Part shown: positions 4,045 through 16,985 of the stretch, piece by piece
How the letters are laid out: every line of letters begins with the position of its first letter
Numbering within the stretch: position 1 is the stretch's first letter
Position numbers and translations under genes: made by a program
Notes under the pieces: model-generated
Seen by the model: only the letters and a program-made list of their open reading frames with translations
What the model was told of the DNA's origin: nothing
Database searches by the model: none
Assembly: GCA_031459625.1 (NCBI GenBank)
Contig: JAVKIH010000018.1
Location: forward strand, 1 to 35,227
Length of the DNA: 35,227 bases
Direction of reading: 5' to 3'
Source of the DNA: Candidatus Geohabitans tengchongensis
GTDB taxonomy: Bacteria > Sysuimicrobiota > Sysuimicrobiia > Sysuimicrobiales > Humicultoraceae

Positions 4045-4137
4045 GGAGGGGTCGCGTAGCCCGGTAGCGCGCCCGCCTGGAGAGCGGGTAAGCGGTCACA
4101 AGCCGCTTCGCGGGTTCAAATCCCGCCCCCTCCGCCA
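4045..4137 (+). tRNA. tRNA-Ser(GGA)
   Basis: GGAGGGG/CCCCTCC acceptor stem, anticodon arm CCCGC-CT-GGA-GA-GCGGG, long variable arm, GGTTCAAATCC T-arm, encoded CCA. Confidence 0.95.
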
Positions 4138-5277: not shown

Positions 5278-6216
5278 TCATCCGCCGCCCGTGCCCATCC
5301 CCACGGCCCGCCGATGGTGGGGGAGCAGCGCGGCGTAGACCGCGAAGGCCAGCGGGGTAGGCACCCCCGCCTCGCGGCCGTAGCGCACCAGCGTCCCGTG
5401 GAGCGCCTCCACCTCCAGCCGCCGACCGGCCAGCAGGTCGGTGGCCAGAGAGGCCCGGCTGTCCGGCAGCTGGGCCTCCGCCAGGGCCAGGTGACGGTCC
5501 ACCAGGTCCGGCGGCAGGGGCACGCCCCTGGCACGCGCCACCGCCACGCCCTCCTCCAGCAATCCCCGGAAGAGCGCCCAGGTGGGCGGCGAGGCCCGCA
5601 CCTCACCGAGCGGCAGCCGGGTGAGCGCGCTCACGCCCGCCAGCGCGCAGATGAAGATGAACTTGCTCCATTTCTCGGGCCGGATGTCCGCCAGCGCCTC
5701 GGCCTCGAACCCCGCGGCGCGGAAGCGCGCCTCCCAGGCGCGCAGGCGGTCGGTCAGGCCACGCCCGGTCCAGGCGCCGAACCGGATCGCCCGCGGCCCC
5801 CCGGTCTGGCGCACCACCCCGGGGGCCTCGATGGCCGCGAAGATGTACGCCGTCCCGCCCCACACCCGCTCCGGCCCGAAGCGCGCCGCCAGCACCTCTT
5901 CGTTGTCGACCCCGTTCTGCAGGGAGAGGATGACGGTCTGCGGGCCCACCGCCGGAACGATGCGCGCGGCGGCGGTCTCCGTGTCGTAGGCCTTCACGGT
6001 GAAGAGCACCAGCTCGGCCGGCTCGTCCGGTGCGCCCAGGGCGCGGGCCGGGGCGAAGAGCTCGCCGTGGACGGTGTGCAGGCGCACCCCGCCCTGGGCC
6101 TGCAGGGCGTCCAAATGCGCCCCCCGCGCCATGAAGGTGACGCGCTCGCCGGCGCGCGCCAGCAGCCCCCCGAAGTAGCCGCCGACACCGCCTGCGCCGA
6201 CGACCAGGACGCTCAC
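5278..6216 (-). CDS. panE: 2-dehydropantoate 2-reductase (ketopantoate reductase family)
   Basis: VVGAGGVGGYFG, TVKAYD, LSLQNG, KWSKF, SLATDLLAGRRLEVEAL. Confidence 0.9.
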   Translation of the reverse strand: MSVLVVGAGGVGGYFGGLLARAGERVTFMARGAHLDALQAQGGVRLHTVHGELFAPARALGAPDEPAELVLFTVKAYDTETAAARIVPAVGPQTVILSLQNGVDNEEVLAARFGPERVWGGTAYIFAAIEAPGVVRQTGGPRAIRFGAWTGRGLTDRLRAWEARFRAAGFEAEALADIRPEKWSKFIFICALAGVSALTRLPLGEVRASPPTWALFRGLLEEGVAVARARGVPLPPDLVDRHLALAEAQLPDSRASLATDLLAGRRLEVEALHGTLVRYGREAGVPTPLAFAVYAALLPHHRRAVGMGTGGG

Positions 6217-10547: not shown

Positions 10548-11654
10548 ATGACCCCGGAGCAGCCTGAAGGACGTCCGGCTCGCCGACGCCGCCGCGGTCG
10601 GCGCCGCCGCGGGGCCGCGCAGGCGGCGACTCAGGCCACAGCGGCGGGGGCGCCTGCGCCGGAGCCGGAGCGGGCTGCCGGGACGGGCTCCAGCCCCGAC
10701 GGCAGCGCCGCAGCTGGCGCCGCCCTCCTCCTCCCGCCGGCGCTCTCTGCCGGACCCAGCGCCCCACACCAGGCCGTGCCCCTCCCCGAGGGCAGCCCCC
10801 AGCCCGCACCGTCGGCGGTTGAAGGCGCCCCGGCCCCCGGCGATCTCCGCATCCGCATCCGGGCGGCCATCCTGGACTTCCTGGCGCGCCACCAGGAGAC
10901 CCAGGTCCCCACGCTCCTCGACGCGCTGGCGCGGCAATTCCCGGGCTTCGGCCGGGCCGAGGAGACGGTCGCGCTGGAGGTCCTGCACGAACTGGCCACC
11001 AGCAACATCCTCCTGCCCGCGCTGGACCGCCGGCACCTGGGCTGGCCGTGGGTGCGCGTCACCGAGTACGGTCGGCAGGTGCTGCAGACCGGGCGCCCGG
11101 TCCCCTACGACCCCGACCGGTACCTGGCGGCCGCCCAGCAGCGCCTGCCCACGCTGCCTCCGTTGGTCCTCGACGTCCTGCGCGAGAGCGTAGCCGCCTT
11201 CCACCGGGGGTTGATCCGGGCGAGCGCGCTGCTGCTCGGCGTGGCGTCGGAACTGCTGATGCTGGAGCTGACCGAAGCGTTTTTGGCCACGCTGCCCGAG
11301 GCGGAGCGGCGGTCGCTGTCGGAGTGGTGGGCGGAGAAGAGCCTGTACGCGCGCTACCGCCTCTTCCGGGAGGCCTTCGAGGCCAGGCGGGAGGCGCTGG
11401 CCCTGCCCGACAGCGTCAGCAAGGACATCGACGCCATCCTGGACCTCGTCTTCAACGCGGTACGCCTGCAGCGCAACGAGGCCGGCCACCCCACCGGGGC
11501 GCCCCTCAACCCGGTGCTCATGGCCGCCACGCTCCAGGTCTTCCTGGAGTACGCCGAGCGCATCACCGGGCTCATCGCCTTCCTGCGGCAGACGACAGTC
11601 CGCCCGCCCTCGCGCCGCCGGCGCCGACGCACCCGGTCGTCCCGGGGCGAGTGA
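10548..11654 (+). CDS. Hypothetical protein, winged-helix plus HEPN-like domain, Arg-rich termini
   Basis: WVRVTEYGRQVL (wHTH wing), ESVAAF...ASALLLGVASE, and RNEAGH (Rx4H). Extended -10 TGtTAGACT at 10492-10500. Confidence 0.65.
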   Translation: MTPEQPEGRPARRRRRGRRRRGAAQAATQATAAGAPAPEPERAAGTGSSPDGSAAAGAALLLPPALSAGPSAPHQAVPLPEGSPQPAPSAVEGAPAPGDLRIRIRAAILDFLARHQETQVPTLLDALARQFPGFGRAEETVALEVLHELATSNILLPALDRRHLGWPWVRVTEYGRQVLQTGRPVPYDPDRYLAAAQQRLPTLPPLVLDVLRESVAAFHRGLIRASALLLGVASELLMLELTEAFLATLPEAERRSLSEWWAEKSLYARYRLFREAFEARREALALPDSVSKDIDAILDLVFNAVRLQRNEAGHPTGAPLNPVLMAATLQVFLEYAERITGLIAFLRQTTVRPPSRRRRRRTRSSRGE

Positions 11655-11678: not shown

Positions 11679-12188
11679 CTACTCCTCCTCGCTCTCCTCG
11701 TGCGGGTGCCCCTCGCGGGCCAGGAAGTCCTCCACCAGGAGCAGCTGCGGGCCGGCCCGGCGCACCACGCTCAGCAGGCGCTCCATCGTCGAGACCTCCT
11801 CCAGTTGCTCCCGCACGAACCACTGCAGGAACTCCTGCGTCGTGTAGTCCCCTTCCTTGACCGCCTGCGCCAGCAGGCCGTGGATCTGCCGCGTGACCTC
11901 CTGCTCCCACTCCAGGGAGAGGCGCACCGGCTCTTCCGCGCCGCCGAACTCGCCGCGAGCACCGGGCGTGGCGGGCACCTCCACGCGGCCGCCCGCCTCC
12001 ACGACGTAGCGGACGAAGCGCATGGCGTGCTCCCGCTCGTCGTCGGCCTGCTGGAAGAAGAAGCGGGCGAGCCGGGGCAGGTTCTCCGCCTCGAAGTAGG
12101 CCGCGATCGCCACGTACTGGAGCATCGCCCCGAACTCCCGCCCGATCTGCGCGTTGAGGGCGGCGTTCATCTCCCGGCTGATGAGCAT
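11679..12188 (-). CDS. ftn: Non-heme ferritin
   Basis: LNAQIGREF..LQY, FFFQQADDEREHAMRF, EQEVT, FLQWFVREQLEEV. GGAGG RBS and TATAAT at 12234-12229. Confidence 0.92.
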   Translation of the reverse strand: MLISREMNAALNAQIGREFGAMLQYVAIAAYFEAENLPRLARFFFQQADDEREHAMRFVRYVVEAGGRVEVPATPGARGEFGGAEEPVRLSLEWEQEVTRQIHGLLAQAVKEGDYTTQEFLQWFVREQLEEVSTMERLLSVVRRAGPQLLLVEDFLAREGHPHEESEEE

Positions 12189-12250
12189 CGTGGCCTCCAC
12201 CGTGCGACCTGGATCTGTGCCGCGTTCCATTATAGGCGCCGTGGGCACCG

Positions 12251-13426
12251 CTATCGGCGCCACCCCACCGCCCATACCGCCGCCGCCTGCACCCCCACCA
12301 GGGCCAGCCAGGCCGGCGGGTACCCCACGCGCTCGACCAGCCCGCCGAATGCCGGGGAGGCCAGCATCGTGAAGACGTAGAGGACCGTGAAGAGCACCCC
12401 CAGGGTGGCGGCCCGCGCCACGGCGGCGCGCTCGGCCACCGCGGTGAGCGCGAGCCCGTTCCACCCCAGGAACGTGAAGCCCCCGGCAAAGGCGAGCAGT
12501 GCGGCGGCAGCCGGGGAGAGGTGGCCGGACGCCCCCACCGCGGCCAGCGCCGCCGCCGCCCCGCCCCCGGCCAGCGCGGCCAGCGCCAGCGGCCGCCGCC
12601 GGTCGCCGCGGAAGTGCCAGTCGGAGAGCCACCCCCAGGCCAGACGGCCGGCCACGCCGCCCAGGTGCACCAGCAGGAGGAGGCGCGCGGCGGGGGCGAG
12701 CGCCCACCCGAAGCGGTCGACGGCGTACAGCGGCAGGTAGCCGGTCAGGCTGAACTGGCTCACCACCAGCAGGCACGCGGCCGCCGTCGTGGATCGCAGG
12801 ATCGGGTCGCCGGCGAACCGCCGGGCGGTGGCGCCCAGCCCTGTCGCGGGCGGCGGCGCGCCCGTCCCGGCCAGCCCGGGCACGACGAGCCAGGTCACCG
12901 CCGCGGCGACCAGCGCCGCCAGGCCCGAGGCCAGCAGCGCCGTGCGCCATCCCCACGCCTCGGCCAGCCACGGCAGGAGGAGCGCCCCGGCGAAGCCGCC
13001 GAGCGGCAGGCCGGCCTGACGGATCCCCATGGCCACCCCGCGCTCTTCCGCGGGGAACCAGCCCACCACGGCGTGGCTGCCGGTGATCTGGCTGGAGGGG
13101 AACCCCACGCCGGCTGCGGCCATCAGGAGCACCAGGGGAAGGAAACCCGGCGCCGCGGCAGCCAGGCCCACCACCACGCCCGTGGTTGCCGCGCCCAGGG
13201 CCATGACCCGCCGCTCGCCCAGACGGTCTGTGAGCGCGCCCGTGGGAAGGAATGTCAGCAGGGCGCCCAGGTCGAAGGCGGCCAGCAGGACCCCGACCTG
13301 GACCAGCGAGAGGCCGAAGTCGGCGCGGATGAAGCCGACGATGGCCGGGAGCCCGAACCGCACGACGGTCAGCCCGGCCTGGTGGACCGTGGCGGCCGCG
13401 AGCAGCCACCAGCGCGATCGGCTCAG
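12251..13426 (-). CDS. MFS transporter
   Basis: GALTDRLGERRVM (motif A), WFPAEERGVAMGIRQAG, GWLSD, about 12 TM. Start inferred at CTG overlapping the upstream TGA. Confidence 0.88.
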   Translation of the reverse strand: MSRSRWWLLAAATVHQAGLTVVRFGLPAIVGFIRADFGLSLVQVGVLLAAFDLGALLTFLPTGALTDRLGERRVMALGAATTGVVVGLAAAAPGFLPLVLLMAAAGVGFPSSQITGSHAVVGWFPAEERGVAMGIRQAGLPLGGFAGALLLPWLAEAWGWRTALLASGLAALVAAAVTWLVVPGLAGTGAPPPATGLGATARRFAGDPILRSTTAAACLLVVSQFSLTGYLPLYAVDRFGWALAPAARLLLLVHLGGVAGRLAWGWLSDWHFRGDRRRPLALAALAGGGAAAALAAVGASGHLSPAAAALLAFAGGFTFLGWNGLALTAVAERAAVARAATLGVLFTVLYVFTMLASPAFGGLVERVGYPPAWLALVGVQAAAVWAVGWRR

Positions 13427-14184
13427 GGGCGATCTTCCCGCTTCCGCAGGACCGTCAGGCAGAACGGGTCGCGTACGACGATGCGGGCGTCCGGGTCCCG
13501 CCGCAGCTCCCGGATCAGGCGCTCGCGCGTCTGCGGCGGGAGGTGGGCGGCCGTCCACTCCCGACGCAGAAACTCCTCCAGCGCGGCCAGGGAGCGGAAG
13601 ACGGCGGCCAGCATGAACTGCTCCCGCCCTGCGAAGCCGAAGAGCCCCTGCCGGATCACCCGCTCGACCGCCCGCTCGCTTGCGACATAGTCGGCGTGGT
13701 AGTCGCCACGCTCGTGGAGGTGGCCGACAGGGACCGCCCGGCCGGCCACGCGCACTTCGACGGGCAGGTACTTGGTCCGCCGGCCGCCCGGGTCACGGTC
13801 GGGCCGCAGGTCCAGGAGCCAGCCCTCAGGCTGCAGGACCCGGTGCGCCTCTGTCAGGGCATGGACCATGCCCCGGTGGGCGATGCATCAGAGCGACCAC
13901 GAGAAGAGGACGGCGGTGAAGGTGGCATCCGGGAAGGGGAGCGCCTCGGCGCGGCCCACCTCCAGCCGCACCCTGTCCTGCCACCGTCGCAGCCGTGTCC
14001 GGGCCCGGGCGACCTGGTCGGGATCGGGGTCGATACCCACCGCCGACCGGACGAGGGGGGCCAGGCGGCGAGTCAGCCGGCCGTCCCCGCACCCCACGTC
14101 GAGGAGGACGGACCCGCGCAACAGCGCATGCCGGAGGACCGTCCGCACCTCCCGCCGTTCCGGGTCGAGCCGCACGCCGCGCAT
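13423..14184 (-). CDS. Class I SAM-dependent methyltransferase with one in-frame TGA (13890-13888), probable selenocysteine
   Basis: GGAGG RBS, then LLDVGCGDG...GIDPD...AEALPFPDATFTAVLFSWSL*CIAHRGMVHALTEAHRVLQPEGWLL. Track ORFs 13888-14280 and 13423-13869 share a frame and join into one 253-aa domain. Confidence 0.8.
13844..13887 (-). promoter_or_regulatory. Candidate bacterial SECIS element
   Basis: GGGCAUG-GUC-CAUGCCC hairpin (13873-13857) starts 14 nt after the UGA. Lower stem UGC..CGCC/GGCGCA. Confidence 0.6.
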
Positions 14185-14272
14185 GGCGTCACCTCCAGAA
14201 GAGAGTTCGGCTCGGGGAGATGGTGTCCTGTCAGCGCCAGGCTCCTCGCGTGCCCGGGCGCCCCGGGCGGCG

Positions 14273-14325: not shown

Positions 14326-16575
14326 ATGGACCGCTTCGTGCGCGTCGCCACGCTGGAGGAGTTGCGCGCCGCCGGTCGCCTGGTCGTCCAGGCGGACGGG
14401 TACACGCTGGCCCTGTTCCTGGACGGCGACCAGGTCTTCGCTGTCGACAACCGCTGCCCCCACATGGGCTTTCCGCTCCACCGCGGGACGCTCAAGGACG
14501 GCATCCTCACCTGCCACTGGCACCACGCCCGCTTCGACCTGCACAGCGGCGGGACGTTCGACCGGTGGGCGGACGACGTACGCACCTTCCCCGTGGAGAT
14601 CCGCGACGGCGAGGTGTGGGTGGACGTCACGCCGCGGGGCGACGTGCGCGCCCACCAGCGGGAGCGCCTGTGCGAGGGGCTCGAGTACGACATCCCGCTC
14701 GTCATCGCCAAGGCGGTCGTCACCCTGCTGGAGACGGGCGACGACCCCGACGAGGCCTTCCGCATCGGGCTGGACTTCGGCGTGCGCCACCGCAAGGCGG
14801 GATGGGGGAGCGGCCTCACCATCCTCACCTGCCTGCGCAACCTGCTGCCGGTGCTGGACCGCGAGGACCGGGCGCGGGCCCTCTACCACGGCCTGGCCGC
14901 CGTGGCCGCCGACACCTTCGAGCAGGCGCCCCGCTTCGAGGTGCGGCCCCTGCCCACCCTGGGGGCCAGCCTGCGGGCGCTGAAGCAGTGGTACCGCCGC
15001 TTCATCGAGGTCCGGGACGCCGAGGGCGCGGAGCGGTGCGTCGTCTCGGCGCTGCGCGCCGGCGCCACGCCCGCACAGATGGCCGATCTGCTGCTGGCGG
15101 CCGCCACCGACCACCGCTACCTCAGCGACGGCCACGTCGTCGACTTCACGGTGAAGGCCCTGGAGGCCCTCGACCATGCCGGATGGGCGGGCGCGGAGAT
15201 GGTGCTCACCAGCGTCGTGGGCGCCTGCGCAGGCGCCGAGCGCATGGAGGAGTCGAGCGCCTGGCGCCACCCCGTCGACCTGGTGGCGATCCTGGAGGAG
15301 GCGTTCGAGCGCCTCCCCGATGCCCTGCGGGCCCAGGCGACGGCCGGGGACGGCGCCGTCCCCTGGGAGGGCGGCCCGGCCCTCGTCGATGTCCTCCTGG
15401 GCGAGGACCCGCAGGCGATCGCCGACGCGCTCCTGGCGGCGCTGCGCGAGGGCGCCGCCCCGGAGGCGGTGGCCGCCACGGTGACTTACGCGGCGGCGCT
15501 GCGGTTGGCCCGCTTCCCCACGACCAACGAGTTCACGGACTGGAACACGGCGCTGCACACCTTCTCCTTCGCCAACGCGGTGCAGCAGGCGCTCGGGCGG
15601 GTGCGCTCCCCCGAGCTCGTGCGCGGGGTGTTCGACGCGGCGATGAGCGTCTACCTGGACCGCTTCCTCAACGTGCCGCCGGCGCCCCTCCCCGCCCCGG
15701 CCGAGGGGGAGACGCCCGAAGCCCCCGAGGCGCTGCTGGCGGCGCTACGCGCGGCGCTGGACCGGCAGCAGCAAGTGAACGAGGCCGGGGCCCTGGTGGC
15801 CCGCTACCTCTCCGGGGGCGGCGACCCGGCGCGCTTGCTGGCCACGCTGGGCAGCCTGCTCCTGCGCGAGAACCGCATCTTCCACGCCATCCAGGCGGTG
15901 GAGGCCGCCGTCCGCCAGTTCCAGGCGCTCGGCCCCACGGCGCAGGGCGTGCACACGCTGGTCGCCGCCGCGCGCTTCCTGGCTGCGCACAGTCCCACCA
16001 CCCGGTCGCAGCAGCAGACCTTCCAGATCGCCTACCGCCTCCACCGCGGCGAACGGCTCTACGCCGAGCCCGACCGGGTGCTGCGCACCGTCCTCTTCAT
16101 CGACATCGTCCGCTCCACGGAGGTGGCCGCCGAGCTGGGCGACCGGCGGTGGCGCGACGTCCTGGGCAACTTCCAGGCCCTCGTGCGCAACGAGCTGGGC
16201 CGCTACGGGGGCCGGGCAGTGGACCTGGCCGGCGACGGGGGGCTGGCCACCTTCGACAGCCCGGGCCGGGCCATCCGCTGCGCGCTGGCCATCGCCGCGG
16301 CGGTACGCCGCTGGGGCATCGCGGTGCGGGCCGGGGTCCACACCGGCGAGGTGGAGGTGAGCGGCGACCGGGTCACCGGCATCGCCGTGCACGTGGGCGC
16401 GCGGGCCGCGGCCGCCGCCGCGCCGGGCGAGGTGCTGGTCACCGGCACGGTGCGCGACCTGGTGGCCGGCTCGGACATCCGGTTCGAGGACCGCGGCACC
16501 CACACGCTGCGGGGCGTCCCCGGCACCTGGCACCTCTTCGCCGCCCACGCCGACCACATGGGGCGGCGAGGGTGA
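14326..16575 (+). CDS. Rieske [2Fe-2S] / helical domain / class III adenylate-guanylate cyclase fusion
   Basis: N-terminal NRCPHMGFPL...LTCHWHHARFDL. C-terminal TVLFIDIVRST, AGDGGLATF, RAGVHTGEV, GIAVHVGAR, LRGVPGTWHLF. Confidence 0.88.
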   Translation: MDRFVRVATLEELRAAGRLVVQADGYTLALFLDGDQVFAVDNRCPHMGFPLHRGTLKDGILTCHWHHARFDLHSGGTFDRWADDVRTFPVEIRDGEVWVDVTPRGDVRAHQRERLCEGLEYDIPLVIAKAVVTLLETGDDPDEAFRIGLDFGVRHRKAGWGSGLTILTCLRNLLPVLDREDRARALYHGLAAVAADTFEQAPRFEVRPLPTLGASLRALKQWYRRFIEVRDAEGAERCVVSALRAGATPAQMADLLLAAATDHRYLSDGHVVDFTVKALEALDHAGWAGAEMVLTSVVGACAGAERMEESSAWRHPVDLVAILEEAFERLPDALRAQATAGDGAVPWEGGPALVDVLLGEDPQAIADALLAALREGAAPEAVAATVTYAAALRLARFPTTNEFTDWNTALHTFSFANAVQQALGRVRSPELVRGVFDAAMSVYLDRFLNVPPAPLPAPAEGETPEAPEALLAALRAALDRQQQVNEAGALVARYLSGGGDPARLLATLGSLLLRENRIFHAIQAVEAAVRQFQALGPTAQGVHTLVAAARFLAAHSPTTRSQQQTFQIAYRLHRGERLYAEPDRVLRTVLFIDIVRSTEVAAELGDRRWRDVLGNFQALVRNELGRYGGRAVDLAGDGGLATFDSPGRAIRCALAIAAAVRRWGIAVRAGVHTGEVEVSGDRVTGIAVHVGARAAAAAAPGEVLVTGTVRDLVAGSDIRFEDRGTHTLRGVPGTWHLFAAHADHMGRRG

Positions 16576-16755: not shown

Positions 16756-16831
16756 TGGAGGGCCGTGAGGGACTCGAACCCCCGACGCGCGGGTTAAAAG
16801 CCCGCCGCTCTACCCGCTGAGCTAACGGCCC
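16756..16831 (-). tRNA. tRNA-Lys(TTT)
   Basis: GGGCCGTTAGCTCAGCGGGTAGAGCGGCGGGCTTTTAACCCGCGCGTCGGGGGTTCGAGTCCCTCACGGCCCTCCA, 76 nt with CCA. Confidence 0.96.
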
Positions 16832-16985
16832 CCCTGGTCCACCAAACCATGGTATCCCAACGTTGCCGGTCTCTCAACGCACCGCACTGCCTCAGAATGG
16901 TCCCTCTTTGACCAGCGGGGCAGGCCGTGCAGCGGCCCACCTTCAGCGAAGTCGGCGGCTGCCCGCAGGCCCTGGAGCCCGCGTG

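Follow-up and report, generated by a model that had tools for sequence, protein, structure and literature searches.

The locus

On the minus strand of the window, i.e. the whole 35,227-nucleotide stretch of DNA analysed, a methyltransferase gene runs from an ATG at 14184 to a stop at 13425-13423 with a single in-frame TGA on the way, codon 99 at 13890-13888 in the context SWSL-U-C; the next codon is TGC and the ORF is otherwise intact (Table 1). The first-pass annotation had described two ORFs in one frame, separated by this one TGA and giving an intact 253-aa protein on read-through, and coordinates, sequence and frame were as it had them. Within the same study, another sample yielded a contig that spans the 3-kb region, with one difference that lies outside codon 99. 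(An RNA run, X4, was rejected as evidence of transcription, one 11.8-kb contig in it carrying the whole 3 kb, intergenic parts included.) A scan of the locus for promoter and terminator found none. The C-terminal 148 aa of the protein form a separate database record (P0292).

The Pfam domains Methyltransf_11 and Methyltransf_25 span the TGA (residues 28-124, E about 1e-21), and an AlphaFold2 model, with U entered as C, has one seven-strand methyltransferase fold across it at a mean pLDDT of 94.8. With its GxGxG motif I, an acidic residue after beta2 and the seven-strand fold, the protein is a class I SAM methyltransferase. C100 is invariant in alignment A1, as are G31 and R36 of the motif I region, with G33 and G35 nearly so. 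Strand beta4 comprises residues 89-95 of the model and the U99-C100 pair sits just after it; secondary structure and fold matches suggest that the pair is close to SAM. The top fold matches are YcgJ, TleD and RebM, the structural neighbours being ordinary small-molecule methyltransferases, and the methyltransferase clusters found in the ESM Atlas were generic, the C-terminal fragment leading only to unnamed clusters of 137-142 aa.

Table 1. Features at the methyltransferase locus and beside it (positions in the window)
Feature	Position	Strand	Basis
Methyltransferase CDS, 253 aa, class I SAM, TGA codon 99 read through	13423-14184	-	Translation, Pfam, AlphaFold2
Shine-Dalgarno-like GGAGG, 7 nt upstream of ATG	14192-14196	-	Sequence; function putative
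SAM-binding motif I, LDVGCGDG, aa 28-35	14080-14103	-	Translation; alignment A1
TGA, very probably Sec99, first of the pair after strand beta4	13888-13890	-	TGA in 52/54 genomic copies, TGT in 2/54
TGC, Cys100, second of the pair	13885-13887	-	TGA in 47/54 genomic copies, TGY in 7/54
In-frame SECIS, 6-bp stem GGGCAU/AUGCCC, 5-nt loop GGUCC (13867-13863), encoding G-M-V-H-A-L	13857-13873	-	Covariation, fixed synonymous codons
MFS transporter, co-directional, abutting the stop, start uncertain	12251-13424	-	PF07690, E 5e-40
Ferritin-like gene, downstream, start approximate	11679-12190	-	PF00210, E 1e-35
749-aa Rieske-cyclase protein, divergent from the methyltransferase	14326-16575	+	N-terminal Rieske, C-terminal adenylate/guanylate cyclase; weak DUF6244 between

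Codons at the pair

With TGA written U and a Cys codon C, the 54 genomic copies, from three phyla, comprise 45 UU, 7 UC and 2 CU; all 54 have at least one TGA, and none has TAA, TAG, TGG or CC at the pair. (Genomes G008 and G018, which are unpublished, supply two of the UU copies; if these are excluded the figures are 43, 7 and 2 of 52, and no claim depends on them.) A profile search across 94 genomes from the window's phylum detected the family in 25, the 28 copies that cover the motif being 24 UU, 2 UC and 2 CU, a count that excludes one N-terminal piece lacking the motif column and treats two pieces from one genome (G085) as a single copy. In the class Anaerolineae, with nine candidates per genome scored, 17 of 301 genomes have it (18 copies, 17 UU and 1 UC), and in the class Actinomycetes 6 of 201 (8 copies, 4 UU and 4 UC), with none in the 201 genomes of an archaeal class (Bathyarchaeota). 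The residue after the pair is I, M, V or L in 54/54, which argues that the spacer is translated. Further downstream, the first in-frame stop codon varies (23 TGA, 19 TAG, 12 TAA), and four of the 54 copies are frameshifted elsewhere (L162, L305 and the identical L312 and L313). Some genomes or contigs have two or three paralogs (L342 in G227, L237/L238, G011, G017, G056, G715), and these can be of mixed state, UU with CU in G011 and G017 and UU with UC in G715.

A metagenome scan that fixed only TG at each of the two codons and the hairpin described below, with family membership judged by HMM, yielded at least 121 loci. Among the matches listed, 118 of 121 are family members, 117 of these with distinct 60-mers, and the other three are unrelated chance matches. 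All 118 have TGA (92 UU, 15 UC and 11 CU), none having CC or TGG (Trp) at the pair, and as the codons had been left free this argues that the hairpin travels with the UGA. An earlier peptide-pattern scan of genome contigs gave one family member (L056) among the 80 loci listed. The first-pass annotation had read the site as U-C, and Sec followed by Cys does describe the window's gene; what it overlooked is that the second position is also TGA in most relatives, which makes this a UU/UC/CU/CC family.

The in-frame hairpin

The hairpin GGGCAUGGUCCAUGCCC, at 13873-13857, starts 14 nt after the UGA, where the first-pass annotation had placed it. In an ungapped alignment of the 54 genomic copies, a 6-bp stem is paired in 305 of 306 cells, with compensatory changes at three stem pairs (15 cells; G-C to A-U at two pairs, A-U to G-C at the other), and for cells paired together with covariation it exceeds 500 of 500 shuffles and every slid register. 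Shared ancestry inflates this test, the compensatory cells stemming from few events, namely S-M-V-H-A-L in three Anaerolineae and D/G/S-V-V-H/N/D-V/A-L in Actinomycetota. The 7-bp stem first proposed did not stand: 7 of 51 distinct sequences cannot form the seventh pair, which favours a stem of 6 bp and a loop of 5 nt, and since neither the longer stem nor a GU/AU extension is conserved, both were set aside. G at loop position 2 is invariant in the 54 copies.

Synonymous sites are likewise fixed across the stem, those of the loop being free to vary. G105 is GGC in 42 of 44, H108 CAT in 44 of 48 and A109 GCC in 42 of 46, whereas at the other conserved columns the share of the most frequent codon is 0.32-0.85; CAT accounts for 1030 of the 12,255 His codons of the window's genome overall. 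A peptide compatible with the hairpin is kept in 5 of 50 CC proteins, suggesting that the RNA is the reason for its retention (the search pattern was derived from the Sec copies, whose own 54/54 fit is by construction). Of 46,818 TGA trinucleotides in the window's genome, only 16 are followed at 11 or 14 nt by a hairpin of this kind, the pattern having been set after the hairpin was seen. The folding energy of a 61-mer is not unusual (z -0.42), and the 17-mer itself folds, with 7 pairs, at an MFE of -9.9 kcal/mol.

In the portion of PMC13188914 available, the bacterial SECIS model has a loop of 3-9 nt with G at position 1-2, 16-37 nt from the UGA, a stem of 4-16 bp and an MFE of -7.5 or lower; the window's element, with its 5-nt loop, invariant G2, 20-nt distance, 6-bp stem and -9.9 kcal/mol, lies within it, and so do both loop distances, the loop starting 20 nt past codon 99 and 17 nt past codon 100. 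E. coli fdhF, from its fetched sequence, has UGA, 11 nt and then GGUUGCAGGUCUGCACC, with GGUC at 18 nt, and the apex GCA-GGUC-UGC that the first-pass annotation had given is right. As in fdhF and bacterial SECIS elements, the hairpin lies within coding sequence shortly 3' of the UGA and presents GGUC at its apex, and, counted from the second codon of the pair, the family's 17-nt element also begins after 11 nt. The differences are that the family's stem is a perfect 6 bp whereas that predicted for fdhF is bulged, and that in the family one hairpin would serve two adjacent codons.

Sec machinery and genetic code

In the window's genome (94% complete), selA, selB and a gene for tRNA-Sec(UCA) lie on one contig (C23) and a Sec-type selD, with its own in-frame TGA, on another (C1); selA, selB, selC and selD, for which the first-pass annotation had recommended a search, are all there. 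TGA is the main stop, terminating 802 of 1159 long high-GC3 ORFs, in keeping with the earlier contention that it is an ordinary stop here rather than a sign of a recoded genetic code. Of the 94 genomes of the window's phylum, 77 have selA, as do 23 of the 25 carriers of the family; the two carrier genomes without a selA match are 72% and 68% complete. The machinery, the TGA or Cys of homologs and a conserved, covarying hairpin strongly support the Sec-Cys selenoprotein with in-frame SECIS that had been proposed, and nothing found on any of these three counts speaks against it.

A rough scan of the same genome points to further likely selenoproteins, e.g. a CMD/AhpD-like one with C-T-Y-U (C17:21069, minus strand) and one with the thioredoxin-like motif U-P-H-C (C34:9464, plus strand), each with a hairpin. 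A homolog of the former is 3 kb from the UU gene of another genome, G057 (L331:3385-3633). Two tRNA-like segments of the window, 4045-4133 (+) and 16758-16833 (-), score under the tRNA-Sec cut-off and are probably ordinary tRNAs.

Database proteins and the tree

The 264 proteins compared comprise the query, three listed others counted once, the best 120 of 160 matches and the best 150 of 15,057, with overlaps merged. Fifty are full-length with CC at the pair; this state is known from database proteins alone, with none among the DNA copies, and one CC cluster bears the name of a Kariarchaeaceae archaeon. Another 22 end exactly at L98 and 56 are C-terminal fragments, the majority beginning with MVHAL or MVDAL; the forecast that standard pipelines would split the gene in two is thus borne out. 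His-His is present at the pair columns in 57, the nearest non-family sequences among those compared included, WW in two (P0047, P0130) and a lone Cys in few (AC, YC, CY, SC). TGA or Cys at the column, as seen in UU, UC and CU in DNA and in the CC proteins, is what the homolog comparison that had been called for returned.

In a quick IQ-TREE tree of 178 rows (branch support by SH-aLRT only, rooted at the midpoint, with U treated as C and short copies omitted) the window protein and three other UC rows share a 95% branch within a 97% clade that has 20 UU rows, and from these sequences its U-C appears to be derived within a U-U clade, most simply by U-to-C change at the second position. The starred branches force a minimum of at least 11 state changes for UC, at least 10 for CC and at least 4 for CU. 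Four of the CC proteins (P0038, P0041, P0045, P0138) are nested in the Sec clade.

Gene neighbourhood

None of the MFS, ferritin-like and Rieske-cyclase neighbours is conserved beside homologs. At 13422-13434 of the window, related strains carry an additional 112-116 letters between the end of the methyltransferase and the MFS gene, so that the tight junction is strain-specific. A 368-aa ORF at 10548-11654 (+) has no Pfam match and an N-terminus of low complexity. Across 101 loci (673 kb, simple gene calling) there is no general neighbour, no recurrent ars operon and no recurrent corrinoid genes. YqeB/XdhC flank one Anaerolineae clade, and rhodanese, MBL, DsrE and peroxiredoxin flank some others. 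In G027 and G083 the UU gene has, upstream, a LysR regulator (L319:4110-5033 and L329:2416-3306), whose best NCBIfam match is the selenium-metabolism LysR (188 against a cut-off of 250).

A Sec-bearing ArsM-like gene, with WxG-U-xAG and scoring 233 bits where NF008823 has a cut-off of 263, is within 4 kb in 7 of the 101 loci, from five independent genomes or contigs and three phyla, and absent from the other 94 neighbourhoods, the window's included. In G027, in G239 and in G715, which contributes three loci, two of them identical, it lies right beside the family's gene in the same direction, and in G603 and L237 it is nearby. One Actinomycetota locus has the run ArsR-rhodanese, MBL, MFS, ArsM-like, DsrE, Sec-ArsM-like and UU methyltransferase. 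The ArsM-like genes displayed beside the family have Sec but, after beta4, N-G-V and no Cys. By hand count the window's phylum has 32 copies of TGA-bearing ArsM-like genes in 31 of its 94 genomes, and at the density of that phylum only about 0.1 would be expected by chance in 673 kb. At the level of genomes the two do not co-occur, such a gene being present in 6 of 25 carriers and in 25 of 69 non-carriers (also by hand count), and the adjacency may reflect a general clustering of selenoprotein genes. The window's genome itself has an ArsM-like methyltransferase with WAG-U-ISGA and a hairpin, on a contig other than the window's (C20:4950-5729, plus strand, TGA at 5511).

Relation to known families

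Sec-ArsM proteins (NF008823, NF041536, NF041537, NF047649) are likewise class I SAM methyltransferases with Sec, though theirs is in a C-terminal UxxG motif and the window protein has U-C-I-A after beta4; its scores against these profiles are below the cut-offs (22.9 against 263, 43.2 against 510, 27.5 against 575 and 50.4 against 460). The double selenoprotein MduS (NF045649) combines a methyltransferase domain with two Sec, as UU members do, but its listed motif is CxxU in a 338-position model; the window protein lacks CxxU and scores 25.6 against a cut-off of 380. The METTL7/TMT1 proteins have an LCSV motif whose Cys we take, by way of single-Cys methyltransferases that align to U99, to fall at the same column. 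This equivalence is what survives of the link drawn by the first-pass annotation. METTL7/TMT1A/B and MddH have the same fold and plausibly a Cys at the equivalent column, but a single Cys rather than a CC or UU pair; NCBIfam, PDB and fold searches gave no match to METTL7, TMT1 or MddH, the family appears to be a separate clade, and membership is not supported by the sequence comparison, in which no named METTL7 or MddH sequence stood. TMT1 has an N-terminal hooked helix in the part of PMC11445057 available, where the window model has only a short strand and a helix before beta1.

Adjacent Cys-Sec, as in CU members, is known for SaoC, SaoL, HgcA and MbdU, in unrelated folds, none of them listed as UU and none a class I SAM methyltransferase (Table 1 of PMC13188914), and CU-motif selenoproteins such as SaoC may, according to the same review, use Sec as a metal ligand. 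That table (2026, 119 families) has neither a UU motif nor such a methyltransferase. In NCBIfam 20.0 the window protein is under the cut-off of every model among the best 25 of 41 matches, and no model reaches its cut-off for one UU and two CC members. The accessible text of PMC12013277, PMC9312934, PMC2398784 and PMC10778597 does not describe the family or the UU motif; the literature compared also included parts of PMC11445057, PMC10705543 and 10.64898/2026.03.03.709296. A literature search, weak for consecutive-Sec terms, returned no description of the family or of natural bacterial UU, and supplementary candidate lists could hold the family. That there is an uncatalogued UU/UC/CU/CC selenoprotein family is well supported, its substrate side being a matter of conjecture.

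Interpretation and alternatives

The window gene almost certainly encodes one protein with Sec inserted at UGA99, and this jointly with the pair's place after beta4 is very probable. In the mechanism envisaged, SelB-GTP-Sec-tRNA would bind the in-frame hairpin and Sec would be inserted at UGA99 to give SWSL-U-C; in most relatives one hairpin would serve two consecutive UGA codons, and a loop at 20 and 17 nt implies that one SECIS can serve both. One in-frame SECIS with two adjacent UGAs at two spacings bears on delivery by SelB and on competition by release factor 2, and would be useful for making multi-Sec proteins.

The turn after beta4 lines the methyl-acceptor site in class I methyltransferases, and neighbouring Cys residues are a typical feature of proteins that handle As and Hg. 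Since either position of the pair is Se or S and rarely anything else, the pair is probably a catalytic or ligating dichalcogen. The adjacent selenolate and thiolate might hold the species to be methylated, a soft metalloid or chalcogen (As(III), Sb(III), Se or Te species), in place beside SAM, and the pair may re-reduce the methylated product via a Se-S or Se-Se bond; that the acceptor is of this kind, bound by the pair next to SAM, is a tentative proposal to which somewhat less than an even chance is given. The wider proposition, that one SECIS directs Sec to two consecutive UGAs, that the resulting Se-Se or Se-S pair is the catalytic center of metalloid or chalcogen methylation in a manner unlike ArsM or TMT1, and that UU, UC, CU and CC arose repeatedly, is also held tentatively, a little closer to doubt than to belief. 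Sec at the predicted acceptor site of a class I methyltransferase is at a position unlike that in Sec-ArsM or MduS. The many interchanges of UU, UC, CU and CC on the tree amount to a natural experiment on Sec versus Cys, and if the proposition is true the four forms are a ready-made series on why enzymes use selenium, from a family present in over a quarter of the genomes of the window's phylum as well as in Anaerolineae and Actinomycetota, and held in databases as hypothetical fragments.

Among selenoprotein readings with another acceptor, an ordinary small-molecule O-, N- or C-methyltransferase, with U and C in place of a His-His acid-base pair, draws on the HH of the 57 compared proteins, on the alignment of TleD SLCH with SLCC and on the top folds, with the His residues at these columns presumably catalytic in RebM and TleD (a literature search found no paper on a catalytic His pair in either). 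It is nevertheless unlikely, as it leaves unexplained both the retention of two costly UGA codons across three phyla and the near-exclusive tolerance of S or Se at the pair. A selenolate placed at the acceptor site would be a strong nucleophile, and Sec could itself take the SAM methyl as a Se-methyl intermediate and hand it to a corrinoid, metal center or protein; for two family members the best NCBIfam match is the corrinoid-associated CpaM, but at 73-75 bits this is far under the cut-off of 180, corrinoid genes are not recurrent neighbours, and such a relay seems quite improbable. That the protein methylates a thiol, H2S or HSe-, as TMT1A/B or MddH do, with the substrate held as a mixed persulfide or selenylsulfide or via a metal, is about as unlikely as the small-molecule O-, N- or C-methyltransferase: the fold match to TmtA ties with many unrelated methyltransferases, profile, fold and PDB matches give no clade link to METTL7 or MddH, and the available parts of PMC11445057 and PMC10705543 describe no catalytic Cys for MddH or TMT1A and have MddH as likely metal-free.

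Readings without Sec fare worse. UGA decoded as Trp or Cys, by a changed code or leaky read-through, could account for the two WW database homologs, but these are inside the Sec-bearing clade and are probably automatic UGA=Trp translations; with TGA ending most long ORFs and no TGG at the pair in 54 genomic and 118 metagenomic copies, this is very improbable. The numerous N- and C-terminal database fragments and the four frameshifted copies might suggest a pseudogene, an assembly error or a split two-gene enzyme restarting at MVHAL, which is scarcely credible: the break is always TGA at the Cys columns with an in-frame, conserved spacer, the contig of the second sample agrees at the codon, and in Actinomycetota copies the ATG of the supposed restart is replaced by GTC. 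Conservation refutes this last set of explanations.
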